Positions 2,995-47,029 of a DNA stretch of 64,000 nt are shown in pieces. This DNA is from Candidatus Aenigmatarchaeota archaeon. GTDB lineage: Archaea > Aenigmatarchaeota > Aenigmatarchaeia > PWEA01. The DNA is taken from positions 606 to 64,605 of the forward strand of contig JBKHHE010000004.1 of assembly GCA_046539305.1 (NCBI GenBank). The letters run 5' to 3'. The notes under the pieces are model-generated. The model did not search any database and was not told where the DNA came from. It was given only the letters and a program-made list of their open reading frames with translations. Position 1 is the stretch's first letter, and each line of letters opens with the position of its first letter. Made by a program: the position numbers and the translations under genes.

Positions 2995-3579
2995 ATGAAC
3001 AAAGAAGACATGAGAAATATAGAGGATCTGTACGAGAAAGGACAGGAGCCAATTCCTGCCCATTCCTTTGAGAACCACGTGCTTGAAGTTTACGAAAATG
3101 CGAAAAATTTAATAGAAGAGGAAAACGTCGAGGATGAGGTCGTGGAATATGCAGCTCTTCTTCATGACGTGGGAAGGTATTATCCTAGGGAGAACAGTCA
3201 TGCTGAGAAAGGCTCGGAAATTGCGAAGAAATTTCTGATTGAAAAGCTTGGAAAGAGTAAGGAGTTTGCTGAAAAGGTCTCCGAATGCATAAGGTTTCAC
3301 TCAAACAGGCCAGGTGTTGAGCCACCGAGCCGCGAGGCAGAGCTTGTATGGGTTGCTGACAAGATGCACGCTTTGGGTATGACAGGGCTTTTCAGATACT
3401 TGCTTTCTTTGGGAGGGAAGGAGTGCTCCTGTGAAGAGGCCGTAAATCTTCTCAAAACCAGAATAGAGACGGCCGAAGAGCGAATCAGGGACTTTGGATT
3501 CGAGGAGCTGATTTCTGGACTTGATCCGATCAAGAAGGCTGTGAAAAAGTACGAGGAGGAGAACGATGCATCTGACTGA
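2995..3579 (+). CDS. HD-domain metal-dependent phosphohydrolase
   Basis: LLHDVGR HD motif, a second His in RFHSNR, 194 aa. Its 3' end overlaps the next gene by 14 nt. Confidence 0.75.
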   Translation: MNKEDMRNIEDLYEKGQEPIPAHSFENHVLEVYENAKNLIEEENVEDEVVEYAALLHDVGRYYPRENSHAEKGSEIAKKFLIEKLGKSKEFAEKVSECIRFHSNRPGVEPPSREAELVWVADKMHALGMTGLFRYLLSLGGKECSCEEAVNLLKTRIETAEERIRDFGFEELISGLDPIKKAVKKYEEENDASD

Positions 3580-4741
3580 GGAAGAGGAGAAGATGCTGGA
3601 GTCGGACAACCCGGCTGTGCGCAAGGCCATGAAGCTCTTGGTAAAGCTTGGTGATATTTACGGTGCGGAGGAGATGGTGGAGGTGAGTTCTGCTCAGGCC
3701 TCGGGCGTTTCGTACAAGTCCATAGGCGACCCGGGGATGAAGTTTCTTGAGGAGTTTGCCGATGAAGGTGCAGAGGTCTCCGTGCCCACATTTGCAAATC
3801 CCGCGGGCATGGATCTTGATAACTGGAGTAACATGAATATTTCTGAGAAGTTCGCGGAAAAACAGAAGAGGATAATAGACGCGATGAAGCAAATGGGGAT
3901 AAACATAACCACCTCCTGCACACCCTATTTATGGAGCAACCTGCCCCGGAGAAACGAGCACATAGCCTGGGCCGAATCTTCGGCGGTTTCGTTTGCGAAC
4001 TCTGTTATTGGAGCCAGGACAAACAGGGAGGGAGGACCCTCTGCCCTTGCCGCGGCCATAACAGGCAGGACCCCGAAGCACGGGCTCCACCTGGAGGAGA
4101 ACAGGGAGCCCACGCACGTGGTGGAAGTTGACGCTGATATGGAAGAAATATCGGACTTCGGCGCCCTCGGCTCCTGGGTCGGGGAGAGAGTAGAGGATGG
4201 AAAGCCCTACTTCTTTGGAATTGGTTCGGCGGGAACGGACCAGCTCAAGTCCCTGGGCGCAGCTATGGCCGCGTCCGGTGCCGTTGCCCTGTACTTTGTA
4301 GAGGATATAACTGTGGATCCTATGGATGTCTCCGGCCTGGAAAGACTGGAGTTTACTGGAAACGAGATGGAAAAAGAGTACGAAAGCCTGAGCAAATCCC
4401 GGGAACCGGAGCTCGTGGTCTTTGGCTGTCCTCACTGCTCGATAAGTGAGATAGAGGAGATTGCGAAGGGTCTGGAGGGGGAAGAATTGAAGAAAGATCT
4501 CTGGGTCCTCACAAGCAAGGCGGTGAAGGCCTGGGCGGACAGGATGGGATATACGCAGACTATCGAAGAGGCGGGAGGTCAGGTCCTGTCCGATACTTGT
4601 AACGTCGTCTGTCCCATAGAGGATATGAAATATGAGAGGACCGGAACCAATTCGGGGAAGGCCGCAAACTACTTGCCTGGGTTTTGCGAGCAGGATGTAA
4701 CTTTTGCAAGCAAGGACGAGCTTCTCGACATGGTGATTTGA
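3566..4741 (+). CDS. aconitase-X catalytic-domain protein (DUF521); candidate phosphomevalonate dehydratase large subunit
   Basis: 391 aa with a DUF521/AcnX-like sequence. Immediately followed by the cognate small swivel-domain subunit. Confidence 0.72.
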   Translation: MHLTEEEEKMLESDNPAVRKAMKLLVKLGDIYGAEEMVEVSSAQASGVSYKSIGDPGMKFLEEFADEGAEVSVPTFANPAGMDLDNWSNMNISEKFAEKQKRIIDAMKQMGINITTSCTPYLWSNLPRRNEHIAWAESSAVSFANSVIGARTNREGGPSALAAAITGRTPKHGLHLEENREPTHVVEVDADMEEISDFGALGSWVGERVEDGKPYFFGIGSAGTDQLKSLGAAMAASGAVALYFVEDITVDPMDVSGLERLEFTGNEMEKEYESLSKSREPELVVFGCPHCSISEIEEIAKGLEGEELKKDLWVLTSKAVKAWADRMGYTQTIEEAGGQVLSDTCNVVCPIEDMKYERTGTNSGKAANYLPGFCEQDVTFASKDELLDMVI

Positions 4742-19879: not shown

Positions 19880-21643
19880 ATGCGCATAGCTATAGTGGAT
19901 GAGGAAAAATGCAACCCGAACAAGTGTGACTGGGAATGTTTTAAGGCGTGTCCCGTCAACAGAAAGGGCGAGGACTGCATAACCAAGGGTGACATCGCGG
20001 AGATAGACGAGGGACTGTGTATAGGCTGCGGTATATGTGTCACCAAATGTCCCTTCGACGCGATAAAGATCGTGAACACGCCGGAGGAGCTGGACGAGAG
20101 ACCCGTCCACCGTTTCGGGAAGAACGCCTTCGTCCTGTACAGACTTCCAGTCCCAAAACCCGGGGGTGTCGTAGGCCTTCTTGGAGGTAACGGCCTCGGA
20201 AAGTCCACGGCCCTGAAAATACTTTCAGGAGGTATAGAACCGAACCTGGGCGAGCCCGGACAGAAAGCTTCTTTGGATGAAATATCGAAGCTCTTCCGGG
20301 GTACGCAGTTGCAGGACTATTTCCACAAGGTGGAAGATAAGAAAAAAACTGCTTACAAGCCGCAGCGCGTAGAGGAGATTCCTAGAATGTACGAAGGGGA
20401 GGTGAAGAACTTCCTGGAGAGGACAGACGAAAGGGGGATCTTGGACAAAGTTCTCAGAAAGTTAAGCATAGAAAACGTTCAGGACAGGAGACTGGAGGAG
20501 CTTTCCGGGGGAGAGCTACAGAGAGTCGCGATAGCCGCTACCCTTTGCAAGGACGCGGACATATATTACTTCGACGAACCTTCTTCGTATCTGGATGTAT
20601 ATCAGAGACTTCAGGTGGGGAAATTGATTCAGGAACTTGCGGAGGAGAAGACGGTTATGGTGGTGGACCACGACCTCGCGACTCTGGACTACCTTGCGGA
20701 CACTGTTCATGTATTCTACGGAGAGCCGGGCGCTTACGGCATCGTTTCAAAACCCTACTCAACTAGAAAGGGTATAAACGCGTACCTTGAGGGTTATATA
20801 CGTGAGGACAACGTCCGGTTCAGGGACGAGCCGATAAAGTTCGAAGTCAGAGCACCTACACAGGAGAAAGAGAGGAAGCCGTTGCTCCAGTTTCCGGAGA
20901 CAAAGAAAAAACTTGGAGATTTCGAGCTTGCGGTGGAAGAAGGAAGCCTGGCGGAGGAGGAACAGCTCGGGCTTTTTGGTGCCAACGCCCTTGGAAAGAG
21001 CACCTTTGCCAAGATTCTGGCCGGCGAGATGGAAGCGGACGAGGGCGGACCGGAAGACACATTGGAAATATCTTACAAGCCGCAGAAGATAGAAGTGGGT
21101 GAAAAGGGGAGGGTTATAGATTTTCTGGGCAGAGTTGTGGACAATCCCTATTCAAACGATTTCAAGAACCAGATTCTGAGGCCTCTGGACCTTGGAGATC
21201 TACTTGAGAACAGTGTTTCAAATCTCTCCGGCGGGGAAAGGCAGAGGCTGGCGATAGCTGTCTGCCTGTCCAAGGACGCGGACGTGTACCTTCTGGACGA
21301 ACCCTCTGCATATCTGGACGTGGATCAGAGGCTCGCAGTGGCGAAGCTCGTACAGTCCGTAACTTCCCGCAACGAAGCCTCGAGCATGGTGATAGACCAT
21401 GATATCTTGTTCCTCGATTATTTGTCGGAAAGGGGTATGGTCTTTCTCGGCGAGCCCGGAAAAACGGGCAGGGCACTCAAACCGGGGGACCTTGAGGCCT
21501 CCTTCAATCGCTTTCTTGAGGACGTGGGAGTCACGTTCCGCAGGGACCCACAGACCGGACGTCCGAGGGCGAACAAACCCGATTCTGTGAAGGACCGTGA
21601 GCAGAAGGACAGCGGAAACTACTACTACGTGGGGGAAGAATGA
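19880..21643 (+). CDS. abce1: ABCE1 / RNase L inhibitor ribosome-recycling ATPase
   Basis: N-terminal 2x[4Fe-4S] Cys clusters (CNPNKCDWECFKACP, CIGCGICVTKCP). Two ABC cassettes (GGNGLGKST/LSGGELQR and GANALGKST/LSGGERQR). Confidence 0.92.
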   Translation: MRIAIVDEEKCNPNKCDWECFKACPVNRKGEDCITKGDIAEIDEGLCIGCGICVTKCPFDAIKIVNTPEELDERPVHRFGKNAFVLYRLPVPKPGGVVGLLGGNGLGKSTALKILSGGIEPNLGEPGQKASLDEISKLFRGTQLQDYFHKVEDKKKTAYKPQRVEEIPRMYEGEVKNFLERTDERGILDKVLRKLSIENVQDRRLEELSGGELQRVAIAATLCKDADIYYFDEPSSYLDVYQRLQVGKLIQELAEEKTVMVVDHDLATLDYLADTVHVFYGEPGAYGIVSKPYSTRKGINAYLEGYIREDNVRFRDEPIKFEVRAPTQEKERKPLLQFPETKKKLGDFELAVEEGSLAEEEQLGLFGANALGKSTFAKILAGEMEADEGGPEDTLEISYKPQKIEVGEKGRVIDFLGRVVDNPYSNDFKNQILRPLDLGDLLENSVSNLSGGERQRLAIAVCLSKDADVYLLDEPSAYLDVDQRLAVAKLVQSVTSRNEASSMVIDHDILFLDYLSERGMVFLGEPGKTGRALKPGDLEASFNRFLEDVGVTFRRDPQTGRPRANKPDSVKDREQKDSGNYYYVGEE

Positions 21644-22053
21644 GCGAGATTCATCTGGCGGTTGATGGAGTAGTCCTGAAAGGCGATAAAGTAGTCCTGG
21701 TTTATAGGAAGTACGAGCCGGAGGGCTGGGCGCTGCCAGGAGGGCACGTCGAAGTTGACGAAACGTTGAAAAAGGCCTGTGTGAGAGAGGTCAAGGAGGA
21801 AACCGGGCTAGAAGTGGAGATAGTTGAGGAGGATGATTTGAACCCTCTTGGCGTGTACGACGATCCTGATAGAGATCCACGGAAGAGGATGGTTAGTGTG
21901 GTATATGTCTGTAAGGCGAAGGACGGCGAGCTCAGGGCAAGCAGCGATGCCAAAAGGGTGAAAGCCTTTCACGTGGAGGAGGCCATGGATCTGGAGTTAC
22001 AGTTCGACCATTTTAAAATTCTCAGAGATTTTTTAGAAAGACACGACAGATGA
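21640..22053 (+). CDS. NUDIX hydrolase
   Basis: Nudix box GGHVEVDETLKKACVREVKEETGL. ATGA overlap with abce1. Confidence 0.85.
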   Translation: MSEIHLAVDGVVLKGDKVVLVYRKYEPEGWALPGGHVEVDETLKKACVREVKEETGLEVEIVEEDDLNPLGVYDDPDRDPRKRMVSVVYVCKAKDGELRASSDAKRVKAFHVEEAMDLELQFDHFKILRDFLERHDR

Positions 22054-22091
22054 ACTTTTCCGACGACGTAGGTCTACGACTCCTTCACCAG

Positions 22092-22589
22092 TTAACTTCT
22101 TCTACCTCTTTCCAGCTTCCTGTCGATGTCGTCCAGCTTCCGGAGTATTTCTTCAAGCATCTCCTCGGTATTTCCTCCGGTGCTTCTGGGTCTGTTTTCG
22201 TTTCTCCCCGGGGTTCTCCCACCCTCTTTTGGTCTTCTCTCTTTTCTGGGGCTGTCTTCCCCTCTTCTTCCACCTGAAGATCTCCTGGATCCGGTGGAGG
22301 GGCTACGGGACCCGACATCTTGTCCTCTTTCTTCCCTGGTTAGGTCGGGAGTCCTTCTCTTCCCTCCCTTCGCTTCTGAACCACCAATCTCGGGCGCCTC
22401 GGGAAGATTTTTAACATTTTCCTCGGAGGGCAGTCCAAGATCTTCCTTTCTTCTTCTCGATCCAGGCCTTTGGTTAGAAGGGTTTCTTCGCCTGGGAATC
22501 GCTGTTTCACCTTCTTCGGAACCCCTATCGACTATTTTTCCCTCGTCTTCGGAGGTATGAAGAAATCTCTTAAGTTTGCCCAGTACCAT
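22092..22589 (-). CDS. Arg/Gly/Ser/Glu-rich intrinsically disordered basic protein with short C-terminal helix
   Basis: Start set at MVLGKLKRF, about 30 nt downstream of ACTAATAAATATC. The sequence is almost entirely low-complexity R/G/S/P/E and ends in EEMLEEILRKLDDIDRKLERGRRS. Confidence 0.5.
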   Translation of the reverse strand: MVLGKLKRFLHTSEDEGKIVDRGSEEGETAIPRRRNPSNQRPGSRRRKEDLGLPSEENVKNLPEAPEIGGSEAKGGKRRTPDLTREERGQDVGSRSPSTGSRRSSGGRRGEDSPRKERRPKEGGRTPGRNENRPRSTGGNTEEMLEEILRKLDDIDRKLERGRRS

Positions 22590-22666
22590 AATTTTATTAT
22601 GCAGGCAGAGATATTTATTAGTGTTGGGTAAAGAATGCAAGCTTAGGTTCGTTTTCGGGTTTTATT

Positions 22667-23881
22667 ATGGCTGATTTCAAAGGACCGTTGAGGAAGAGGA
22701 GCATTACCTTTGAAGGAGAGTCAGGCTTTCCTGCAGGTATATATTTTGATATGGTTGATGTCCTGTACTTTTTGGACTACGAGGTGAAAAAGGTCGAGGA
22801 CTGGTTGGAGGTGACACCTAATTCTGAGTTCTACCAGGACATATCCCAGAAGAAGCAGAGCATCGAGAACCAGGTTGCCAATATTACAAACAAGCTATCC
22901 GAGACCAGGAAGGAGCTTGAGATGCTTCGCCACGACAAGAGGAAGCTGGAGAGAATAGTAGACCACAAGGAAGAGGGAGATATAAACGTCCTCAAGGCAG
23001 ATTATATAGATCTCGTTGACAGGAACACGCAGAGGGGTCTCATAAATCTTGCCCAGGCAGGTAAATTCCCCTCTATAGTTGTTGATTTTTACAAGGTGGA
23101 GAGCGAGGAGGATATAGAAAAACTGGACGTTTCCAAGGCCGAAAAAGAAATACTCAGGCGTAAGTGGAAACTGTTTCAGGACTGGTTGGATAGATATGTG
23201 GGAGAAATAGAGACACGGCTTGGGACTGTAGAGAGCGAGATAAGGAGTCAGGAGGCAACGATAGAGAATCTCAAGGACGCCTTGAAACCTTACGCGAAGG
23301 CTATGAAGAGGGTAAGGCTGTCGGAGCCGGATGAGTACGAAGGACTGAGCGACCCGACGATAGTTGAGAAGTACCCCAGCTCAGTAGCCGGTGTGAAGCT
23401 CTATGCCTGGAAGGAGATAAGTCTGGAATCCGTTAAGAGGCATTACGAGGAAATCCCTCCTGAAGCAGATAGCCTGGAGTATTTCTGCTTCCTCGAAATA
23501 ATGGTCGAAAAAAAGGCCAAAGTTGTGGCCCAGGAGGCAAAAGAGGGCATAACCATAGAGATAACCCCTTCGCTCAAACACAGAAGGGATATAGAGGAGA
23601 AAAAGAAGGAAATCAAGAGAAAAGAGAGGGAACTCCTTAAGTCTATTCAGGGTATGAGAGGGGAAATTTCGGAGGAAAAAGAGGAAGAAGAAACCAGGGA
23701 AAGCCTCGGGAAAAAGCTCAAGGGTTTCGGAAAGAGGGTTCTAAAGATTCCAGGAGAGAGGGAATCCCATCCAAAGACCGAGGCAGCCTTTAAAACGGTG
23801 ATCGAGGAAGAGGTCGACATAGTTTACGAAAAAATAAAGGAGCTTGGCGGCGGCCTCAAGCTCAGAAAAATCAAGAGGTAG
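22667..23881 (+). CDS. hypothetical coiled-coil protein
   Basis: 404 aa with long heptad-like E/K/L-rich stretches and no recognised catalytic motif. First gene of an operon-like run. Confidence 0.6.
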   Translation: MADFKGPLRKRSITFEGESGFPAGIYFDMVDVLYFLDYEVKKVEDWLEVTPNSEFYQDISQKKQSIENQVANITNKLSETRKELEMLRHDKRKLERIVDHKEEGDINVLKADYIDLVDRNTQRGLINLAQAGKFPSIVVDFYKVESEEDIEKLDVSKAEKEILRRKWKLFQDWLDRYVGEIETRLGTVESEIRSQEATIENLKDALKPYAKAMKRVRLSEPDEYEGLSDPTIVEKYPSSVAGVKLYAWKEISLESVKRHYEEIPPEADSLEYFCFLEIMVEKKAKVVAQEAKEGITIEITPSLKHRRDIEEKKKEIKRKERELLKSIQGMRGEISEEKEEEETRESLGKKLKGFGKRVLKIPGERESHPKTEAAFKTVIEEEVDIVYEKIKELGGGLKLRKIKR

Positions 23882-23888
23882 TCAGGAG

Positions 23889-25484
23889 ATGCTGAAGAGT
23901 CTCAAAAAGTTTTTCAAGCTCCCGGTCAAGGACAGAAAACTGGAGCCCGAGGGCTACAGGATAGAGACAAGCACATGGCCGGAAGCCGGGGGAGAGAACA
24001 TACTTTCTGGCATCAGCACGGCCCTCCACAGCGGTGCCACGACAGTCGAGGTCACCGGAAACCATCCCTCCTCTTTCGCCCCACATATAATGAGAGAACT
24101 CAAAAACTTCATAGAACAGGAAAACCTGGACATCAACATTCACACCCGGATACAGCTGAGGATAGCCAGAGCTATCAGAAGGGACTACGAAAGGGTCCAG
24201 GACTATTTAAAGGGCTACGTCGAAGTTGCCGAGGAACTCGACAGTGACTATATAAACGTCCATACCTCTTCTTTCCCGAGTCCCGAGCTCGGCAGGGTCA
24301 CTGGAGTTTCAAGGGGCACCACCGTATCCCCGGACGGGAAAACTGCCGAGGAATTTATAATCGATATGGCGAAGAAGTCGGAGAAGGTCTTCAGCCATGT
24401 AATAGACGTGCTCATGGACTCGAGACTGCCAAACGTCACACATTACGCTGCCGAAGACATAATCCGAGAAATTGCCGAGGAGAGGAATGTGGAGCTGGAT
24501 GCGGCAGAGAACGAATTTAAAAGGAAGTTCCGTGACGATGACGAAGACCTCATAGAGATGATAAAGGAGGTCCTCAGGGACAAGTTCAGAAAGGTCAACA
24601 AACTCCCCTTCGAAACCGGATCGAGGATAATCGATGAACTTATGATGTACAAGATGGTGGCCTGGAAAATGTACGAGGAGAACCATCCCATCTGGAACAA
24701 GATATGCGGAGGAGAAGAGCCTGATGAGGTAGCAGACAGGAACATGAGTGACCTGATCGACGCAGTAGCGGGGAGATACATAGAGGGTCATATAGAGAAG
24801 CTCAAGGACGACCTCGAAAGTTCCGGGGTGATACTGACCCTGGAGACCCCGAACGCCGAGGAGGGCAGGTTTATAGGGTACTATCGGCTCGTTGACCCGG
24901 AAAAGATATACCACGTTGTGAAGAGTATAGGCCATCCACTCGTCAGGCTCTGCATAGATTTCGAGCATATAGCGAGTCACGGAATCAGTCCCGCAAAGGC
25001 TATGAAAGAGGCGCCGGGAGGCATAGGTGAGGTGACCTACGTCGTCCACATTTCCGGGGAACCCGTACCCGGCCACAGACACAAGCCCCTTGAGAAGGGT
25101 GATATAGACCTTTACAGGATGTTATGGAACCTGAGAAAGAAAGGATTTGAGGGTGGATACCTAAACTTCGAGAGAGGTGGAGGTGGTGAAAGGATCCAAG
25201 AAGGGAGGGAAGACCCCTACCAGGATTCGCTTCCCAATCTGAAGGAGATAGTCATGTATCTCGAGGACGATACACCCCCCGAGGAGCTACCCGAAGAATT
25301 CTACGGATACACGGACAAAGAGTTCAAGCAGGAAAGGGCCACAGTCCTTTCCCATACCTTCGACCCCCTTGAAGGCTTGATTGAAACGCCTGAGCTGAAG
25401 GACAGCCTCCTTGCGAAGTATGCGAAGGACACTGAACCGCGGATGCGCGGCGAAGGTGCCTGGGAAAGGGAGGAGCACAGGTAG
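23889..25484 (+). CDS. xylose-isomerase/AP-endonuclease-2-like TIM-barrel protein with a large helical insertion
   Basis: Start set at MLKSLKKFF, after CAGGAG. N-terminal barrel strands (TTVEVTG, NIHTR, YINVHTS) and C-terminal ones (LTLETPN, CIDFEHI, VVHISG, LNFERGG) are separated by an acidic helical segment of roughly 150-190 aa. Confidence 0.55.
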   Translation: MLKSLKKFFKLPVKDRKLEPEGYRIETSTWPEAGGENILSGISTALHSGATTVEVTGNHPSSFAPHIMRELKNFIEQENLDINIHTRIQLRIARAIRRDYERVQDYLKGYVEVAEELDSDYINVHTSSFPSPELGRVTGVSRGTTVSPDGKTAEEFIIDMAKKSEKVFSHVIDVLMDSRLPNVTHYAAEDIIREIAEERNVELDAAENEFKRKFRDDDEDLIEMIKEVLRDKFRKVNKLPFETGSRIIDELMMYKMVAWKMYEENHPIWNKICGGEEPDEVADRNMSDLIDAVAGRYIEGHIEKLKDDLESSGVILTLETPNAEEGRFIGYYRLVDPEKIYHVVKSIGHPLVRLCIDFEHIASHGISPAKAMKEAPGGIGEVTYVVHISGEPVPGHRHKPLEKGDIDLYRMLWNLRKKGFEGGYLNFERGGGGERIQEGREDPYQDSLPNLKEIVMYLEDDTPPEELPEEFYGYTDKEFKQERATVLSHTFDPLEGLIETPELKDSLLAKYAKDTEPRMRGEGAWEREEHR

Positions 25485-25537
25485 GACAAGTTTTAAATAT
25501 AAGGAGTTGTAACTATTAGGTGGTAAAGGGTGTTGCA

Positions 25538-26938
25538 ATGACAGGGAAAAAGGAAAAGAAACGTGGGCGAAACGAGAGCCTGAAACCCGAGGAAACCTTT
25601 ACCGAAACGAGGGATTTCCGCTCCACCAAGAAGAAGATCGAGGACTTTCAGAAGGAAAGGAGGATGGACGCCGCGGAGAAGTTCAAGGAGAGGGCGCTGG
25701 AGAAACATGAGGAGGATATAAAGGCTATAATAGGAACTGGTTCTGTCACGAGAAATGAATTTTCGTCGGAGTCGGACCTGGACGTCACAGTTTTTATTGA
25801 CGACACCCATGAAGACATGGACAAGGAAAAAAAGGAAAAGATAGAGGAAGACCTGAAGGAGGTAGCAGAAGGCTGTGGAAAAACGAAAAATGGCAACAAG
25901 ATTCTACATGTCCAGCCGCCATGGACCATAACTGAATACTGGGACATGATGAGAAGGGGCAGTCCGGTCGCACACTCGTGGACCCAGGATGCTGTGGCGC
26001 TATACGATGATGGATTCTTTGAGCCCATCCAGAGGCTTTACAAGATGGGTAAGTTCCCCGCGACTAGGAAATCCGCAGAGAAGAGAATGTCCAAAGTCCC
26101 AAAAAGGATAAACCGTGCCGAGAGGATGAAAGTTCTGATAGTTGCGAAGGACGTGTACTACGCTATGCTGAATTCTCTACAGGCGATTATAGTTTATATG
26201 GGCGAGGAGGCTCCGGCTCCAAAGCAACTGGCCGAGATTGCCAGGGAAAACCTCGTCGAGAGGGATCTCCTCGAGGAAAAATACATAGAGCAGTATGAGG
26301 AAGTTTATTCTATACACAAAGATGTTGAGCGCAACGAAATAGACGAGATGGAGGGTGAAAAGGTAGATGAATATTTGGAAATGGCCAGAGAGTTTATAGG
26401 TGAGATGCAGAAGTTGATGAAGAAGATAGAGCTGAACAGAAAGGCGAGGAAGATACAGTCCAACTACGAGTCTATGGTCAAGACGTCCGTGGCCGCGCTC
26501 AAGGCTCTTGATGAGCTTCCCGAGGACCCCAAGGACCTGCCGAAAGCGTTCAAGGAAAAGCTCATAGACCAGGAGCTCATAGACCCGAGATACGAGAAGA
26601 CCTTCGGGAAAGTTCTTGAAATGAAGAAAAAGCTGAACGACAAGGAGATAGAGGACGTGACGGAACACGAGATAAACGTCGCGGAAGAGTTCGTGAAGGG
26701 GTTCATAAAGGACATACGCGAGCTGTTGGAGGAAAGGAATATTAGCCCCGAGGACCTGAAAAAGGACTTCAAGGCAGAGGAGAAAGTAGAAGCCGGTGAA
26801 CTAGCCGAGCAAGAGAAGCAGGAGGAAGGTTCCACAAAAGCAGAGGGAAATAACGGGGAGAACTTCGCTTGTGAAGATTGTGGAAAGGAGTTCGACACCG
26901 AGAGAGGCCTGAAGATTCATAAAGGTAAGGCGCATTAG
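25538..26938 (+). CDS. Pol-beta-superfamily nucleotidyltransferase fused to a long helical region and a C-terminal C2H2 zinc finger
   Basis: NTase motif GTGSVTRNEFSSESDLDVTVFIDD. C-terminal FACEDCGKEFDTERGLKIHKGKAH. TATA-like GTTTTAAATATAAGG upstream. Confidence 0.65.
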   Translation: MTGKKEKKRGRNESLKPEETFTETRDFRSTKKKIEDFQKERRMDAAEKFKERALEKHEEDIKAIIGTGSVTRNEFSSESDLDVTVFIDDTHEDMDKEKKEKIEEDLKEVAEGCGKTKNGNKILHVQPPWTITEYWDMMRRGSPVAHSWTQDAVALYDDGFFEPIQRLYKMGKFPATRKSAEKRMSKVPKRINRAERMKVLIVAKDVYYAMLNSLQAIIVYMGEEAPAPKQLAEIARENLVERDLLEEKYIEQYEEVYSIHKDVERNEIDEMEGEKVDEYLEMAREFIGEMQKLMKKIELNRKARKIQSNYESMVKTSVAALKALDELPEDPKDLPKAFKEKLIDQELIDPRYEKTFGKVLEMKKKLNDKEIEDVTEHEINVAEEFVKGFIKDIRELLEERNISPEDLKKDFKAEEKVEAGELAEQEKQEEGSTKAEGNNGENFACEDCGKEFDTERGLKIHKGKAH

Positions 26939-26946
26939 TTTTTCTT

Positions 26947-27723
26947 ATGGAATTAGGTATAGTCGTTAACGCGAGAGAGAAGCCTATAGAGGAACAGCTG
27001 GACAAAGCTGGAGAGCTTGGCTTTGATTTCGTCGAGATAGTTGCCGAAGGTCCCAGAGCCGACGTCAACTTTCTTAGAGGCCATCACCAGGAGATAAGGA
27101 AAGCGGCGGACGAAAATTCTCTGGAACTTTACCTTCATTTACCTTGGACCTTGGATATAGGAAGTCCTTACGAGGAATACAGGGGAGCTGCTCTTGACAT
27201 TTTAAAGAACCTGCTCGAAACGGGCAGGAAAATGAACGTTGGAAAGGCTACAGTTCATCCGAAGTCATATCAGCGTTACTGGGATGAGGAGGAGGTGGAG
27301 GAAAATATAATTGATTCCTTAAAGGAGTTGGACAAATTTTCCGAAAGGAAAGATATCAAGCTCGTCGTCGAAAATACGGAGGAATTCGATCTGCTCTGGT
27401 TTGATGATATCCTACAGAGGACGGACTTGAGCATGTGCCTCGATACCGGGCACGCCATCCTCAACGGCTACGATGAGGAGGAGATAACGGGATTTGTCGA
27501 GGAAAACATGGAGAGAATTTCCCATTCCCACCTAAACGACAACAGGAGGGGTGAGGAGGACGAGCATCTTTCCTTGGGGTACGGGTTCGTGGACCTTGAA
27601 CAGATCATCGATTCTTTGAAGGAGATGGGTTGGAAGGGATCCCTTGCTATCGAGCTCTTCACCGAGGACATGGATTACTGGGATCTAAGTAAAAGAAAGG
27701 TCGATGACTGGTTGGAGGAATAA
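26947..27723 (+). CDS. sugar-phosphate isomerase/epimerase-like (xylose isomerase-like TIM barrel) protein
   Basis: 258 aa. Barrel signature blocks VEIVAEG, LHLPW, ATVHP, VVENT, LDTGHA, SHSHLNDN and LAIE. Confidence 0.75.
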   Translation: MELGIVVNAREKPIEEQLDKAGELGFDFVEIVAEGPRADVNFLRGHHQEIRKAADENSLELYLHLPWTLDIGSPYEEYRGAALDILKNLLETGRKMNVGKATVHPKSYQRYWDEEEVEENIIDSLKELDKFSERKDIKLVVENTEEFDLLWFDDILQRTDLSMCLDTGHAILNGYDEEEITGFVEENMERISHSHLNDNRRGEEDEHLSLGYGFVDLEQIIDSLKEMGWKGSLAIELFTEDMDYWDLSKRKVDDWLEE

Positions 27724-27800
27724 TTTCTGAATTTAGAATATTTATATACCTTTCCAGAAATTTCTATTGTTCGAAGGATTTTTGATGAAATTCAGATAAT

Positions 27801-29840
27801 ATGACACAGCTTATCATCGCCGAAAAACCGAACGCAGCCGGCAGGATAGCCTATGCCCTGGCGGAAGGTGACGTAGAGCAGGAGAGGACGGGAAAGGCGG
27901 TCTGGTACGAGACTAACGTTGGGGATAAAAAAACGTACGTGGTTCCTGCCGTTGGTCATCTTTACACCTTAGAACAGGAAGGCGAGGGTTGGGACTACCC
28001 TATTTTCGACGTGGAGTGGAAGCCCACGCACGAGGTCAGGGACGGCTCTGGCTGGATGAAAAACTACTACAAGAATCTGAAGAAGCTGGCCAACAAAGCG
28101 GACAGTTTCATCAACGCATGCGACTACGATCAGGAAGGAAGCGTCATCGGTTACAATATCCTCAAATTTATCGTCGGGACCGAGAACGCGGGCAGAATGA
28201 AGTTTTCGACCTTGACCACTTCCGACCTAAAAGATGCGTACGAAGACGTCTCCGAGAAGCTGGACCACGGGATGGTGGAATCCGGACTGGCGAGACATAT
28301 ACTCGACTGGCTCTGGGGAATAAACCTTTCCCGGGCGCTTACGTTGTCGGTCAAGAGCGCCGACTCCTTCAAGGTCCTTTCCACCGGAAGGGTCCAGGGG
28401 CCCGCGCTGAAGATACTCACAGATCGGGAGAAGGAGATACAGGAATTCAAGCCGGATGACTACTGGGTTTTGGAGGCTTTGTTGACATCGGAAAAAGGTG
28501 AAGTAAAAGCACGCCACGGAAAGGGGAAGTTCTGGGAGGAAGATGAGGCCGACTCCGCCAGGGACAGAGCTGCGGAGAACTCCGCGAAGGTAAAAGAGGT
28601 CGAGAAGAACAAGTTCAAGCATAACCAGCCCTGCCCCTTCGACCTTTCAACGCTCCAGAGCGAGGCATATTCGGCTTTCAATTTTTCTCCTTCCAAGACG
28701 CTGGATCTTGCGCAGTCGCTCTACGAGTCCGGTCTTATTTCCTATCCGAGGACCTCGAGCCAGAAACTGCCGCCGAAGATCGGCTACCAGAAGATTCTGG
28801 AGAAATTGAAGAAGCAGAATAAATACGAAGAATCCGCAAGAAAGGTTCTGGACAAAGACAAGATATATCCCAAGCAGGGAAAGAAAGAGGACAAAGCGCA
28901 TCCCGCTATATATCCCACAGGCTCCAAGCCTGAGAAGGTTTCCAAGGACGAGGGAAAACTATACGATCTTATCGTGAAGCGCTATTTCGCGGTATTCGGA
29001 GACCCCGCGCTCAGAGAGTCCGTACAGCTGAAGTTTGACCTCTCCGGCGAAACCTTCGAGGCCAAGGGAAAGAGGACGTTAAAGGAGAACTGGTTCAAGC
29101 TCTACGAGCCCTACGTCAACAGGAAGGAACAGAAAGTTCCGGATCTGGAAGAGGGTGAAGAACTGGGGATAAAGAAGGTCGAAAAGCTGGACAAGCAGAC
29201 CCAGCCACCGAAGAGGTACACCCAGGCCTCCCTCGTCACGGAGATGAAAAAAAGAAACCTCGGCACAAAGGCTACCAGGTCGCAGATCATAGACAAGCTC
29301 TACGACCGTGGCTACATAGACGGCTCTTCTATAAAGGTCACGGACATAGGGCTCGCGGTCGTCGACGCGCTGGAGGAATATTCGCCCGGAGTCCTTTCCG
29401 AGGAAATGACACGGAAGTTCGAGGAGGAGATGGAGGAAATTAGGGAAGGAAAGAACGATAAAGAAAAGGTTGTTGAGGAGGCAAGGAAGAAGCTGAAGGA
29501 AATCCTGGAGAGGATAAAAGAAAACGAGGAGGAAATCGGACAGGGGCTGAAGGAAGCCGTCATAAAGACCAAGAAAAAGAAGAGCGAACTGGGCGAATGC
29601 CCCGAGTGTGGGGGAACTTTGAAAATCATAAGGACAGGGAAAAGCCAGTTCGTCGGCTGTACGAACTACCCAGACTGTGAAAATTCATTCCCCCTTCCCC
29701 AGAATGCGAAGATAGTTCCTACGGATAAGAGTTGTGAGGATTGTGGCCTCCCAACCTTCAAAGTCATAAGAAAAGGCAAGAAGCCATTCACTATGTGTCC
29801 CGATCCAGATTGCAAGTCCAAGGAGGATTGGGACTCTTGA
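27801..29840 (+). CDS. topA: type IA DNA topoisomerase
   Basis: Toprim LIIAEKPNAA, active-site Tyr block ISYPRTSSQKL, and two C-terminal Cys4 zinc ribbons. Confidence 0.9.
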   Translation: MTQLIIAEKPNAAGRIAYALAEGDVEQERTGKAVWYETNVGDKKTYVVPAVGHLYTLEQEGEGWDYPIFDVEWKPTHEVRDGSGWMKNYYKNLKKLANKADSFINACDYDQEGSVIGYNILKFIVGTENAGRMKFSTLTTSDLKDAYEDVSEKLDHGMVESGLARHILDWLWGINLSRALTLSVKSADSFKVLSTGRVQGPALKILTDREKEIQEFKPDDYWVLEALLTSEKGEVKARHGKGKFWEEDEADSARDRAAENSAKVKEVEKNKFKHNQPCPFDLSTLQSEAYSAFNFSPSKTLDLAQSLYESGLISYPRTSSQKLPPKIGYQKILEKLKKQNKYEESARKVLDKDKIYPKQGKKEDKAHPAIYPTGSKPEKVSKDEGKLYDLIVKRYFAVFGDPALRESVQLKFDLSGETFEAKGKRTLKENWFKLYEPYVNRKEQKVPDLEEGEELGIKKVEKLDKQTQPPKRYTQASLVTEMKKRNLGTKATRSQIIDKLYDRGYIDGSSIKVTDIGLAVVDALEEYSPGVLSEEMTRKFEEEMEEIREGKNDKEKVVEEARKKLKEILERIKENEEEIGQGLKEAVIKTKKKKSELGECPECGGTLKIIRTGKSQFVGCTNYPDCENSFPLPQNAKIVPTDKSCEDCGLPTFKVIRKGKKPFTMCPDPDCKSKEDWDS

Positions 29841-29879
29841 AAATCGAGATTTTCCGGTGTGAAACTCTATTTCAAATGA

Positions 29880-30581
29880 TCAGAGAAAATCAAATTTTTT
29901 ATCAGGTTTTTCTATGCCGTTTTCCGTGAGCACGACTTGCGTTTCCTTGCCTTCAGGCTGAGACCTATGCTTTCTCAGAATCATGACCCTTTTGCCTCTT
30001 TCGAACTTCTTCATTTCTATAAGGCACTTGGACTGATACTTTGCTATGTCCCTGGAAACGAGCTCTACGCCGCCATTTTCTATGTCCGAATAAATCTGGT
30101 TGGTAATCAAGATGGGGATTCCGTAGTTCCTTGAGAGGTTGGACAGCGTTGAGAGCTGATTGGCGAGCCTGCTGTTTATTTCTTGAGTATCGCCTTCATT
30201 CAACTCCAGTCGGTAAAGGGTCACGAGGGAGTCCAGAACGATAAGCCCTACTTTTTTCTCTTTTTCGCAGATGTTCTCTAGCCTCTCTATATTTTCTTCC
30301 TGGCTGTCGAAGTTGTCAGGTTCTATAAGAATTATCTCATTCATTACGTCGTCCATGCCATCAGCTATCTGTCCCAGTCTCTCCTTGGAGAAGCCACCTT
30401 CAGTGTCGATGAACACCACTTTCTGTCCATTTTTTATGCAAGAGACTGTCGTCTGGAGGCATAAGGTCGTTTTCCCACAGCCCGGAGGACCGTAGATATT
30501 TGTCAGAGTGTCCTTTTCTATACCTCCACCTAGCAGGTCGTCCACTGCCTCACACCCCGTTGAAAGACGCTCGACTTTCAT
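29880..30581 (-). CDS. radB: RadB (RecA/RadA paralog, KaiC-like ATPase)
   Basis: STGCEAVDDLLGGGIE, Walker A GPPGCGKT, 233 aa. Confidence 0.8.
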   Translation of the reverse strand: MKVERLSTGCEAVDDLLGGGIEKDTLTNIYGPPGCGKTTLCLQTTVSCIKNGQKVVFIDTEGGFSKERLGQIADGMDDVMNEIILIEPDNFDSQEENIERLENICEKEKKVGLIVLDSLVTLYRLELNEGDTQEINSRLANQLSTLSNLSRNYGIPILITNQIYSDIENGGVELVSRDIAKYQSKCLIEMKKFERGKRVMILRKHRSQPEGKETQVVLTENGIEKPDKKFDFL

Positions 30582-30622: not shown

Positions 30623-31462
30623 TCAGGCGTAGGATTTGTCGTCTCCACTTTCCCTTAGCTCCCTGATCGATCTGTCCCTTTTCATCTTACTCGACCAAAT
30701 ATCATCTGGGTCTATCCCTTCTTCCGGGCCGGCTTCTGCGTTCCGTTGTTTGTATTCCCACACTATAGCCCTTATATGGTCGGGAGTTATAGGATTCTTT
30801 GTGGACTCGTAGTTCTTTATCTTCCTCTTCAGTTTCTCGTCTACCTCCGTGCTATACTCCTCCTCGTAGTGTTTCACTATTTCTTCTTTCTCCCACTTCT
30901 CGGGCTGTTCATACCTGATAAAAGTGGACATTCTGCCGGGTCTGAGGATGGCATCGTCTATTTTCTCAGGCATGTTGCTTGTAGACAGGACTATGATATT
31001 TTCCTCGGTTCCGAGGGTGGAATCGAGGTTTTCCAGCAAGATATTAGTCCCCGGTCCACGGTCCCTGTCCTTTCCCGTAGCTATATCCACGTCCTCTACT
31101 ACAGGGAAATAATTGTACTGGGGGTATTCATTCGAGAGCTCTCTCACCAAGTCAAAGCCACCTCCCATTGAATGCTTTGGAATATTTATACATTTGCAGT
31201 TCTCGGGAAGTTTGTTCATGAAAGCTTTCAGGGAATCGGTTTTGCCCGTTCCGGGCAGTCCTGCCAAGAAAATCATATTCTCCTCTCGGAGGTAGTCATC
31301 GTCAGCATCCTTGATTCTATTCAACCGGTTCCTGAGCTTCCTCTGTTCGTCCTCGTATCCCTTCAACTCATCGAAAGTAACATGTTCTGGTTCCTCTCCG
31401 GGGGCGTACTCGAAGCCTCGCTGGGTTTTCACTACCTTGAAATATTTGTTCCTCTCCATCAA
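30623..31462 (-). CDS. stand-alone single-domain AAA+ ATPase
   Basis: Walker A GLPGTGKT. Atypical Walker B VVEDVD. Second region of homology ILRPGRMS. 279 aa. Confidence 0.75.
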   Translation of the reverse strand: MMERNKYFKVVKTQRGFEYAPGEEPEHVTFDELKGYEDEQRKLRNRLNRIKDADDDYLREENMIFLAGLPGTGKTDSLKAFMNKLPENCKCINIPKHSMGGGFDLVRELSNEYPQYNYFPVVEDVDIATGKDRDRGPGTNILLENLDSTLGTEENIIVLSTSNMPEKIDDAILRPGRMSTFIRYEQPEKWEKEEIVKHYEEEYSTEVDEKLKRKIKNYESTKNPITPDHIRAIVWEYKQRNAEAGPEEGIDPDDIWSSKMKRDRSIRELRESGDDKSYA

Positions 31463-44512: not shown

Positions 44513-47029
44513 ATGGTAAAGATAGAGAAACTGGAGATGCAAGGTTTCAAGAGCTTTGCCACCCAGACCGAAATTCCCGTTCCTTCCGGCTTCAACTGTA
44601 TATGCGGCCCGAACGGCAGCGGGAAATCGAATATTATAGATGCTATAACTTTCGTCCTCGGGACCCTTTCTACCAAGCAGATACGTGCCGGGAAGCTGGA
44701 GGAGCTGATTTTCTCAGGGGGTGACGGCAGAGAGGCCAGGGACGAGGCCAAGGTTTCTATAGTCTTCAATAACGAGGACGGAGATATCCCCGTGGATGAG
44801 GACAGGGTGGAGGTTACGAGGAAGATAAACAAGCGCGGAAACAGCATCTACAGGATGAACGGCGAGACCGTTACTCGCAGAAAGATAATAGACACGCTTT
44901 CCTCCGCGAAGATACATCCCGACGGCCACAACATCATAATGCAGGGCGCGATAACGAACTTCATAGAGATGAGCCCGACAGAGAGGAGGGAGATAATTGA
45001 CGAGGCTTCGGGCATCCAGGAGTTCGATAGGAAGAAGGAGGATTCTCAGAGGGAGCTGGAGAAGGTAGAGAACAAGCTCAACGAGGCGCGACTGGTCCTC
45101 GGAGAGAAGAAGAAGGCGCTGGACAAGCTTGAGAAGGAAAAGAAGCTTGTCGAGAAGAGGGAGGAAATTGAGAACAGGCTGGAGGGGGTGAGAAAGAAGA
45201 TAGCCAGGCTAACCTACGAGAAGCACAAGGAGGAGAAGGAGGAGCTGGAGGAGAAGATGGAGACAGTTAAAGAAGATCTGGAGGAAGCGAAGGGTAAACA
45301 GGAGGAGCTGGAGGACAGTATCGAGGAGAAGGAGGAGGATCTGGAGGAAGTCAGGGAGAAGATGCGGGAGGAAAAACAGGATAGGGAGCTGATAAAAAGT
45401 ATAGAGTCCGTCAAGTCGAAGATAGAAAGTAAGAAGAGCAAGATAGAGGACAAAAGAGGGGAGATGGAGAGGCTGGACGAGTCCATAGAGAAGCTGGAGG
45501 AGATGGAGAAGAGGCAGCAGAGGATTTCCGGGAAGGGTCCTGCTAAAGAGATACTGAGACTGGACAAGGAGGACGTCCATGGAACTATACAGTCCCTGGG
45601 TAATGTGAAAGAAAAATATCAGAAGGCCTTGGAGGTCGCTGCAGGGGGAAACATGAATTCGCTCGTGGTGGAGAGTGGGGACGTGGCGAAGGACTGTATT
45701 GAATACCTTAAGGAGAACAAAGTGGGGAGGGCCACCTTTCTACCTCTTGACAAACTTCGACCCTGGGACAAGAGCCGGGAGGCAAAGAAGCTCAAGGACA
45801 AGTCGGGGGCGATAGATTTCGCGATAAATCTGATAAACTATGATTCGGACTACGAGCTCGCCTTCCAGTATGTTTTCAAGGACACGCTCGTCGTCGAGAG
45901 CCTGGAGTTCGCAAAGAGACACGCCGGAAAGGCGAGAATGGTGACCTTGGACGGGGAAATAGTCTACAAGTCCGGCGCGATGAAAGGGGGCCATTACGAG
46001 TCCAAGGACAGCTTCGGTTCCTTTCAGAGCGACAAGAGCTCGGAGATCGGCGACTTGGAGAAGGAGAAGGAGGAAATTGAGGAGGAGATAGAAGCTCTTC
46101 GAGAGGAGATTGCTGATCACTCTCAGGAGTTAGAGGAGCTGCGTGAGGAAGAGGAGACAGGTGAAGACGAGCTCACGGAGCTGGAAGAGCGTGAGGAAGA
46201 GATAAAGAGCAAGATAAGCGAGCTTAAAGGTGAAAGAAAAAATTACTACGAGAGGAAAGTCCAGAAAAAGGAGAAGTTCAACCAGCTTAAGGTGAAGAAG
46301 GCGAAGGTCGACACGAAGTTTGAGAATGCTGAAGAGGATCTGGAGGAATACGATGACGCGGAAGATCTGGACATAGAGGAGGACTCCGTTAAAGTTCTTA
46401 AGGAGGAGAAGAAGGACCTTCTGAGGGATCTGGAGGAAATAGGGCCTGTCAATTTCAAGGCTAAGGAGGAGTACAGAAACGCGAAGCAGGTCTACGAGGA
46501 CCTCAAGGAGAGGATAGACAGGATACAGGAGGAGAAGGAGGCGATCGAAGAGACTATAGAGTCCATAAAGCAGAGAAGACGAGATACCTTCATGGAGGCG
46601 TTCAACGAAATAAACGAGCATTTCCAGGAGATATTTGAGGATTTACATGGCCACGAAGGCAGGATAAAGCTGGAGGACGAGGACTATATCAAGTCAGGTC
46701 TCCTTATAGAGGCCAAGGCCTCGGGGGGACAGAAGCTTTCACTCGACTCTATGTCTGGTGGTGAGAAGACGCTCACAGCAATAGCCTTCCTCTTTGCTGT
46801 CCAGCTTTACGAGCCTGCACCCTTCTACATCCTGGACGAAATAGATGCGGCCCTGGACCAGAAGAACTCTAAGAAGGTGGCGGAGATGCTTGAGAGACAG
46901 TCAGAGGACGCACAGTTCATCGTGATAACCCACAACGACCAGACCCTGCAGATGGCGGACTACGTTTACGGCGTCTCGATGGACGACGGCGTCTCGGAAG
47001 TGATGGCGCTGGAGATGCCCGAGGAATAG
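44513..47029 (+). CDS. smc: SMC chromosome-segregation ATPase with unusually short coiled-coil arms (838 aa)
   Basis: Walker A GPNGSGKSN, hinge region (GTIQSLGNV...GRATFLPLDKL), signature LSGGEKT, Walker B ILDEIDAALD. Confidence 0.9.
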   Translation: MVKIEKLEMQGFKSFATQTEIPVPSGFNCICGPNGSGKSNIIDAITFVLGTLSTKQIRAGKLEELIFSGGDGREARDEAKVSIVFNNEDGDIPVDEDRVEVTRKINKRGNSIYRMNGETVTRRKIIDTLSSAKIHPDGHNIIMQGAITNFIEMSPTERREIIDEASGIQEFDRKKEDSQRELEKVENKLNEARLVLGEKKKALDKLEKEKKLVEKREEIENRLEGVRKKIARLTYEKHKEEKEELEEKMETVKEDLEEAKGKQEELEDSIEEKEEDLEEVREKMREEKQDRELIKSIESVKSKIESKKSKIEDKRGEMERLDESIEKLEEMEKRQQRISGKGPAKEILRLDKEDVHGTIQSLGNVKEKYQKALEVAAGGNMNSLVVESGDVAKDCIEYLKENKVGRATFLPLDKLRPWDKSREAKKLKDKSGAIDFAINLINYDSDYELAFQYVFKDTLVVESLEFAKRHAGKARMVTLDGEIVYKSGAMKGGHYESKDSFGSFQSDKSSEIGDLEKEKEEIEEEIEALREEIADHSQELEELREEEETGEDELTELEEREEEIKSKISELKGERKNYYERKVQKKEKFNQLKVKKAKVDTKFENAEEDLEEYDDAEDLDIEEDSVKVLKEEKKDLLRDLEEIGPVNFKAKEEYRNAKQVYEDLKERIDRIQEEKEAIEETIESIKQRRRDTFMEAFNEINEHFQEIFEDLHGHEGRIKLEDEDYIKSGLLIEAKASGGQKLSLDSMSGGEKTLTAIAFLFAVQLYEPAPFYILDEIDAALDQKNSKKVAEMLERQSEDAQFIVITHNDQTLQMADYVYGVSMDDGVSEVMALEMPEE

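Follow-up and report, generated by a model that had tools for sequence, protein, structure and literature searches.

The A-E locus

Here we describe five adjacent genes, called A to E, on contig JBKHHE010000004.1 of a Candidatus Aenigmatarchaeota archaeon (GenBank: GCA_046539305.1). Three of them, B, C and D, form a vertically inherited operon which is conserved across Aenigmatarchaeota and is also found in other DPANN archaea. All coordinates refer to the analysed stretch of 64,000 nucleotides (nt), called the window. Gene A (22092-22589) lies on the minus strand and encodes an RG-rich protein of 165 amino acids, counted from the ATG; its homologues begin with MVLGK. The other four genes are on the plus strand: B (22667-23881) encodes a coiled-coil protein of 404 amino acids, C (23889-25484) a split xylose isomerase-like TIM barrel of 531 amino acids, D (25538-26938) a nucleotidyltransferase of 466 amino acids and E (26947-27723) a TIM barrel of 258 amino acids which resembles MJ1311 and endonuclease IV. 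Topoisomerase IA (topA) follows after E, with its start at 27801.

A first-pass annotation of the same DNA had reported the five open reading frames (ORFs) at these positions, with gaps of 77 nt between A and B and of 7 nt between B and C, all of which proved correct; the spacers between C and D and between D and E are 53 nt and 8 nt long. Its domain calls, xylose isomerase-like TIM barrels in C and E and a Pol-beta nucleotidyltransferase with a C2H2 finger in D, were confirmed by Pfam (PF01261, PF01909 and a weak zf-C2H2). The start codons of the genes agree with those of their homologues, and each of the five products has homologues at an E-value < 1e-70. The names of the homologues point to Aenigmatarchaeota, within DPANN, as the source.

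The order A-B-C-D-E-topA is seen in independent assemblies from four sequencing runs (hypersaline lake, microbial mat). A 26.6-kb contig from an independent run covers positions 21500-30000 with six differences, and the same region is covered ~160-200x by two other runs. The gene order is no assembly artefact.

Conservation of the B-C-D operon

Gene neighbourhoods were compared in two sets of loci. The C-anchored set holds 80 species-level genome loci encoding a relative of C, which were then searched with the window proteins; they come mostly from Aenigmatarchaeota, together with some Nanohaloarchaea and one Woesearchaeota metagenome-assembled genome. The B-anchored set holds 80 metagenome loci on a branch of the B family which shares no more than 15-20% identity with the window protein. 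Neighbour counts refer to the loci with enough flanking sequence, which for D in the B-anchored set means at least 5 kb.

In 62 of 68 C-anchored loci B immediately precedes C on the same strand, and the ORFs of both genes usually abut or overlap; in 54 of 62, C is followed by D. In the B-anchored set 29 of 30 loci have D downstream of B, and an ORF of 580-670 amino acids always separates the two. Five of these intervening ORFs were scanned and all five are PF01261 proteins whose barrel is split as in C, its second half lying at about residues 430-530. Insertions between the module genes in this set leave their order intact.

The flanking genes vary between clades, and topA adjoins D in only four C-anchored loci. 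The neighbourhood consists of housekeeping genes: ABCE1, Obg-like GTPase, DNA ligase, topA, RadB and SMC. Since the genes around it change from clade to clade, B-C-D is the conserved unit, and not the five genes that the first-pass annotation had taken as one block. Co-occurrence in other genomes, whose absence would have refuted that annotation by its own terms, holds for B, C and D only. A is detectable in just six close relatives, always divergent from B, and E follows D in only three other C-anchored loci (L028, L032 and L057). Among the closest relatives, those whose sequence reaches topA (L003, L004, L005 and L008) have no E between this gene and D.

We consider B-C-D very likely to be a functional unit. 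In the literature we found no paper which describes the operon or in which the D family is associated with a TIM barrel or with a gene for a coiled coil. The parts of the operon belong to known superfamilies, and as a system it is undescribed within the literature searched.

C is a predicted multinuclear-metal phosphoesterase

C matches PF01261 with an E-value of 1e-19 and exceeds the gathering score. The match falls into two stretches, of which the best aligns residues 301-452 to profile positions 107-247. H125 and E319 are 194 amino acids apart in C and the equivalent pair in E is 38 amino acids apart; the insert in C is therefore about 155 amino acids long. By alignment and by the two-stretch Pfam match the barrel-splitting insertion is placed at 24288-24839 on the plus strand (residues ~134-317). 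The first-pass annotation was right about the split and had put the length of the insert at roughly 150-190 amino acids. The identical split, with the second barrel half at ~430-530, is present in C orthologues of 590-630 amino acids. The first half of the insertion varies, whereas the second half, to which Y254, W269, Y297, G300 and H301 belong, is conserved, and so is a C-terminal extension of ~80 amino acids. Owing to this conservation we regard both as functional parts and not as decoration.

The best PDB matches of the C family profile are structures of endonuclease IV (PDB: 2x7v, 4hno and 6khy), all of them weak. Endonuclease IV (Nfo) is a trinuclear-zinc apurinic/apyrimidinic endonuclease and 3'-phosphodiesterase, which has the PF01261 barrel in common with C and E. 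Its ligands, in E. coli numbering, we take to be His69, His109, Glu145, Asp179, His182, His216, Asp229, His231 and Glu261. Alignments to 2x7v and to E map eight of these nine ligands onto residues of C: in 78 sequences H85, H125, E319, D357, H387, H398 and E428 show no variation, and 72 of the sequences have a histidine at the position of H360. E359 is an additional invariant residue within this set, and the ligand pattern is mostly kept in 35 distant orthologues. C differs from endonuclease IV by its insert and its C-terminal extension.

Sugar isomerases and epimerases of the xylose isomerase-like superfamily are not known to possess more than a Glu-Asp-His-Glu tetrad. The first-pass annotation had proposed the metal ligands as a way to tell the two kinds of enzyme apart, and both C and E carry the His/Glu/Asp set of the endonuclease IV type, beyond the tetrad. 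Because the endonuclease IV ligands are kept and no curated sugar model is approached (the best one for C scores 19.5 bits, cut-off 353), C is best read as a predicted multinuclear-metal phosphoesterase rather than a sugar isomerase. Its score against the CbiR model is 24.7 bits. In public databases C is generally annotated as "sugar phosphate isomerase/epimerase", a label from routine annotation which the ligand pattern does not support and which is corrected here.

D combines a minimal nucleotidyltransferase domain with a HEPN-like bundle

D is built of a minimal Pol-beta-type nucleotidyltransferase (MNT), a HEPN-like helical bundle, more helices, an acidic linker and a terminal C2H2 finger. 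Pfam assigns PF01909 (E-value 6e-6) and PF18765 as well as a weak zf-C2H2. The homologue alignment locates the catalytic motif G68-S69 ... S79-D80-x-D82 ... D88-D89 at 25736-25813 on the plus strand. This GS...SDxD...DD motif does not vary in any of 108 sequences: all 58 long homologues, all 18 short paralogues and all 32 distant orthologues have it.

In a profile search of the PDB, D matched kanamycin nucleotidyltransferase (E-value 1e-6). The AlphaFold2 model, with a predicted local distance difference test score (pLDDT) of 76, was matched by Foldseek to the same enzyme (PDB: 1kny, E-value 7e-4, probability 1.00), whose two-domain fold D shares, then to AadA/ANT(9), Hailong HalB, MntA and the HEPN protein AF_0298. 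These matches therefore indicate an MNT fused to a HEPN-like bundle; the template modelling score (TM-score) against 1kny is low because D has extra helices. D shares the Pol-beta nucleotidyltransferase, the helical bundle and the GS...DxD motif with ANT(4')/AadA and with MntA-HepT. In contrast to these, it is ~200 amino acids longer, has basic or zinc-finger termini and is part of a conserved operon with C and B. It scores 21.9 bits against the ANT(4')-I model NF033061 (cut-off 350) and 22.5 bits against the MntA model NF047752 (cut-off 60).

In the HEPN-type part, 47 of 58 Aenigmatarchaeota homologues have the canonical R-x4-H motif, in the form R-K-x-V-E-H. All 32 distant orthologues show H-K-x-I-x-H at this place. 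In window D it has become H-K-D-V-E-R, so that this protein keeps the GS...DxD motif of MntA/HepT type VII systems without the HEPN R-x4-6-H RNase motif. The classical C2H2 zinc finger CEDCGKEFDTERGLKIHKGKAH (C-x2-C-x12-H-x4-H, residues 445-466) was found at 26870-26935 on the plus strand by pattern match and by the weak zf-C2H2 hit. It is limited to the subclade of the window (6 of 58 genome homologues); another 23 of the 58 have a strongly basic, lysine-rich tail in its place.

By description, D is like family cls.004259 (NEQ050), which is listed in Table 1 of Makarova et al. 2019 as a DPANN-specific "MNT fused to HEPN ... typically in house-keeping context" (PMC6393860). The conservation of that family is called unusual for a toxin-antitoxin system there, and it is on the priority list of uncharacterised families. 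D and cls.004259 have in common the DPANN MNT with a HEPN-like bundle, the housekeeping context and a conservation beyond that of usual toxin-antitoxins, as far as a comparison by description alone goes. Unlike for D, no linked TIM barrel or coiled-coil gene is mentioned for cls.004259 (PMC6393860).

A role of D as replacement CCA-adding enzyme was considered and rejected, since the required domains are missing and DPANN have canonical enzymes. The tRNA nucleotidyltransferase second domain and tail by which the Pol-beta head is followed in archaeal class I CCA-adding enzymes were not found in D by Pfam at E-values up to 0.1, and canonical CCA-adding enzymes are encoded in DPANN genomes (preprint 10.64898/2026.05.29.728689).

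One subclade has tandem D genes, in which a paralogue of ~290 amino acids with W-K-D-I-D-H replacing R-K-x-V-E-H precedes a D of ~390 amino acids (L034, L049, L056, L057, L060, L063, L064, L066, L067 and L069-L073). The two proteins may form a heterodimer.

B is a conserved family with a helical hairpin

In the AlphaFold2 model of B (pLDDT 72) a long helical hairpin is inserted into a small alpha/beta domain, after which come the C-terminal helices. Helices span residues 54-102 and 157-215 and strands lie within 11-47 and 240-305. The tip region of the hairpin is conserved. The family comprises 558 representative clusters at 50% identity, and because many polar and aromatic residues are conserved in its alignment, B is more than a generic coiled coil.

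B has no match in Pfam, nor have 31 diverse members of the family, and no sequence or profile match was found in the PDB. Foldseek returned nothing from the PDB below an E-value of 1e-3, and the TM-score never exceeded 0.26 in PDB and BFVD. The matches that it did return are low-TM coiled-coil or shape resemblances, for example to MacA/EmrA, and PHROGs and PADLOC yielded coiled-coil noise only. B might be cls.004340 (NEQ484), an 'alpha helical protein, housekeeping context' of Makarova et al. (PMC6393860).

Two further kinds of genes accompany B in other lineages. Two paralogues of ~165-172 amino acids are encoded divergently from B in 37-38 Aenigmatarchaeota loci (L010 6011-6502 and 6609-7127, both on the minus strand); they have no relatives in Pfam or the PDB, could not be related to B and are without homologues in the window. 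In ~21 loci the gene directly upstream of B (L010 7472-7810, plus strand) encodes a small multi-pass membrane protein with a weak DUF308 match, which is absent from the window lineage.

Proteins A and E

A has a pI of 10.46, against a median of 4.9 for the long ORFs of the window, and contains 30 arginines and 22 glycines in its 165 residues. It consists of a short N-terminal MVLGKLKRF segment, a probably disordered region and a C-terminal helix (EEMLEEILRKLDDIDRKLER); no match was found in Pfam or NCBIfam. A is a lineage-restricted accessory outside the conserved core.

Other disordered proteins are found near the operon in other clades. At the position of A, divergent from the operon, L010 (5559-5924, minus strand) and 15 other loci encode a protein of 117-153 amino acids whose middle is disordered and whose C-terminal helix (...IESQLSAIRSQTETINERLKNME...) is very conserved, mostly ending in RRY. 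In the distant metagenome clade (L081-L160) B and the split barrel are separated by a K/E-rich disordered ORF of 180-220 amino acids in which ...KY... motifs recur, for example L083 1464-2018 and L109 8596-9243. By hhalign, homologies among the three kinds of disordered protein were not demonstrable, except for a weak alignment between A and the similarly built Aenigmatarchaeota proteins at the C-terminal helix only (E-value 0.043).

E matches PF01261 with an E-value of 1.6e-37. Its best solved relative is MJ1311 (PDB: 3wqo, E-value 2.5e-14, residues 15-236), then UlaE and endonuclease IV. MJ1311, an uncharacterised archaeal TIM barrel listed as a predicted endonuclease IV homologue of M. jannaschii (Table 1 of PMC2770678), gives the family of E and not its role. 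Aligned to 2x7v and MJ1311, E fills nine of nine endonuclease IV ligand positions (H64, H104, E142, D166, H169, H195, D205, H207 and E236), with the same ligand motifs as MJ1311. The score against the nfo model TIGR00587 is 43.3 bits, under the cut-off of 129.65, and the PRK01060 models give 19-39 bits against cut-offs of 244-376.

With 104.6 bits, E comes just under the cut-off of 105 of the NCBIfam model NF041277 for CbiR, a cobamide-remodelling phosphodiesterase which shows that the superfamily acts on non-DNA substrates too (PMC7733943). Cobamide biosynthesis genes adjoin 80% of cbiR homologues (PMC7733943); none were found beside E or C among the annotated ORFs of the window, where the neighbours of E are D, topA and RadB. 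Epimerase models match E with E-values of 1e-10 to 1e-14, and the best score for a sugar enzyme is 53 bits against a cut-off of 305; the models compared are UlaE, psicose or fructoselysine epimerase, IolE and hydroxypyruvate isomerase. E is plausible as a phosphoesterase. It is probably co-transcribed with D in the window, and it is a separate MJ1311/endonuclease IV-like enzyme, a mere neighbour of the module in this lineage.

Intergenic regions and genomic context

The divergent intergenic region between A and B (22590-22666, no strand) was inspected by eye and presumably contains a promoter: an AT-rich, TATA-like gagatatttattag lies at ~22609-22622, ~45-55 nt upstream of the B start. The C-D spacer (25485-25537, no strand) has a TATA-like TTTTAAATATAAGG and a GGTGG-like motif ahead of the D start and may act as an internal promoter. 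A sigma-70 promoter scan gave nothing in 22590-22666; this model is bacterial and not applicable to archaea, and bacterial promoter and terminator scans in general are uninformative for archaeal DNA. Rfam and tRNA scans found no RNA genes in the window.

Otherwise the window is ordinary chromosome, with genes for ABCE1, Nudix, Obg-like GTPase, DNA ligase, ThrRS, Cdc48, PGK, SMC and RadB. The Nudix gene has a 4-nt overlap with the ABCE1 stop (21640-21643). Runs X1 and X2 contain two co-occurring haplotypes at 21771-21881, which are distinguished by positions 21801, 21829 and 21851 and have depths of ~76-88 and 112-148. The SMC protein (44513-47029) is short for an SMC with 838 amino acids and has its N-terminal, hinge and C-terminal domains all present. 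A stand-alone AAA ATPase of 279 amino acids with a DUF815-like match (30623-31462, minus strand) is encoded beside RadB. Finally, a UbiD-like decarboxylase (1686-2990) and an aconitase X (AcnX; 3566-4741) occur together, a pair known from the archaeal modified mevalonate pathway. DPANN archaea are usually considered dependent on host lipids, hence the pair is notable in a DPANN genome.

Possible functions of the module

Our favoured explanation is that B-C-D is a housekeeping machine working on nucleic-acid ends. As a whole we put it forward tentatively, as quite possible and still short of probable. From the domains and motifs described above, the module likely pairs a phosphoesterase with a nucleotidyltransferase; that it acts on nucleic-acid ends is a more doubtful component. 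C would be the metal-dependent phosphoesterase that strips a blocking phosphate or cuts a phosphodiester, D would be a nucleotidyltransferase adding nucleotides to the same substrate, and B could serve as coiled-coil adaptor or scaffold. A would be a lineage-specific arginine-rich accessory protein. The substrate would be polyanionic, with the 3' ends of RNA or DNA as the most likely candidates.

Nucleic-acid 3' ends are favoured because of the endonuclease IV ligands, the zinc finger or basic tails of D, the basic protein A, the housekeeping setting and the recurrence of such pairs in PolX-PHP and CCA-HD proteins. PolX with its PHP domain and bacterial CCA-adding enzymes with an HD domain are nucleotidyltransferase and phosphoesterase pairs in end repair. 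In PolX-PHP and in class II CCA-HD enzymes a nucleotidyltransferase of the Pol-beta superfamily is likewise paired with a multinuclear-metal phosphoesterase. The partner folds differ, however, B-C-D has separate proteins and a third partner, and D is without the DNA- or tRNA-binding domains of these enzymes. Nucleic-acid repair or modification had already been suggested in the first-pass annotation; we infer it here partly by analogy, and it is strengthened only by the ligand pattern, the basic tails and the likeness to these pairs. Whereas the observations of that annotation were confirmed, its interpretation is thus partly supported.

Several points weigh against this explanation. Position 396 of C, the equivalent of Asp229, varies between P, T and H, so that one endonuclease IV ligand is missing, and C has no match to the NCBIfam nfo models (TIGR00587, PRK01060) at E-values up to 0.1. 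The closest solved relatives of D modify small molecules (aminoglycosides) or proteins and not nucleic-acid ends. Because the HEPN motif is altered in the window and in the distant clade, an RNase step of D cannot be assumed. Besides the zinc finger, which is restricted to one subclade, no nucleic-acid-binding domain was found in the module. B offers no functional clue, as it is without a detectable relative of known function by sequence or fold. No RNA sequencing runs containing the module sequence were found. Lastly, neither B nor D is adjacent to C in one subclade of C (L037, L048, L050, L052, L053 and L062), whose members may be paralogues. Two of them, L037 and L062, have an ABC-ATPase-like ORF after the C-like barrel in place of D.

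The relatives of D lead to another explanation, a cycle of nucleotidylylation and de-nucleotidylylation. D would transfer a nucleoside monophosphate to a hydroxyl, for example by AMPylation as kanamycin nucleotidyltransferase, GlnE and MntA do, and C would hydrolyse the phosphodiester; the target would be a protein or small molecule, possibly B or a disordered protein. This suits the best structural relatives of D, which are small-molecule O-nucleotidyltransferases and the protein-AMPylating MntA, and the three kinds of disordered charged protein that accompany the module in three clades. CbiR shows in addition that a barrel of this superfamily can cleave phosphodiesters other than those of nucleic acids (PMC7733943). 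We nevertheless regard the cycle as unlikely, given that no conserved acceptor residue was identified, that the three disordered proteins are not demonstrably homologous and that the zinc finger and lysine-rich tails of D better suit a nucleic-acid partner.

The module could also remodel lipid head groups or membranes in a host-dependent archaeon, with C as a phosphodiesterase on head groups, D activating an alcohol and B as a lipid-binding adaptor. The beta region of B recurs in low-probability Foldseek matches to lipid binders of the START/Bet v 1/Ups1 type, a small membrane protein is encoded directly upstream of B in other Aenigmatarchaeota, and basic tails could bind acidic membranes too. 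The START-like matches have probabilities of 0.03-0.15 and TM-scores of 0.05-0.09 on the query, however, no membrane or hydrophobic segment was found in A-E, and the window itself encodes the UbiD-like and AcnX proteins. To our knowledge the enzymes that activate head groups have a different fold. Together this makes a lipid function very unlikely.

A little less probable again is the absence of any functional link, in which case B, C and D would be adjacent merely through inherited synteny in slowly rearranging small genomes. The wider synteny is indeed inherited as well, with ABCE1, the GTPase and a KH protein upstream in several clades. The trio persists, however, where the flanks differ and across lineages in which B is only 15-20% identical, the order survives insertions between the genes, and the ORFs of B and C usually abut or overlap.

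MNT and HEPN pairs are the classic components of type VII toxin-antitoxin systems, and the MNT-HEPN family was initially read as a probable toxin-antitoxin by Makarova et al. (PMC6393860). D also matches the MntA model and PADLOC candidate nucleotidyltransferase models weakly, at the domain level. A toxin-antitoxin or antiviral defence module around the fused MNT-HEPN protein, as the first-pass annotation had allowed for, is nonetheless highly improbable. The MntA score of D is far under the cut-off, the catalytic HEPN arginine is missing in window D and in the distant clade, and no PADLOC system was matched beyond the nucleotidyltransferase domain: B, C and E match none, B giving a coiled-coil match only, and nothing was found for A. 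The gene order is kept across distant DPANN clades in a housekeeping setting, unlike in patchy mobile defence islands.

Mononuclear sugar enzymes are not known to have the extra histidine ligands of metal sites 1 and 3. A metabolic role on sugars or polyols, in which C and E would be isomerases, epimerases or dehydratases of the xylose isomerase-like superfamily, is extremely unlikely. The public label of C, the epimerase-model matches of E and UlaE among the PDB relatives of E would speak for it. C and E carry these histidines of the endonuclease IV sites, however, all such matches are far under the curated cut-offs, none of the proteins attains the cut-off set for a characterised sugar enzyme, in line with the first-pass annotation, and no sugar kinase or transporter is present in the conserved neighbourhood.

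Significance for DPANN archaea

A more far-reaching reading is that B-C-D is a DPANN-specific, undescribed machine made of an endonuclease IV-derived phosphoesterase with a conserved lid, a fused MNT-HEPN protein and a protein of new fold, working on a substrate which other archaea handle differently or not at all. We judge this to be rather unlikely. Its substrate might be a nucleic acid or a nucleotide-linked polymer tied to the symbiotic lifestyle, and the fast-evolving disordered neighbours would be its clients or organisers.

By description, D fits the published shortlist of top-priority uncharacterised DPANN families, and a second gene of the module may fit another one. Because very small genomes keep B-C-D across phyla with invariant catalytic residues, the operon is probably important to DPANN archaea. 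With an orphan MNT-HEPN family linked to an endonuclease IV-like predicted phosphoesterase and a coiled-coil partner, its function becomes testable, as nucleotide transfer and phosphoester hydrolysis on a shared substrate.

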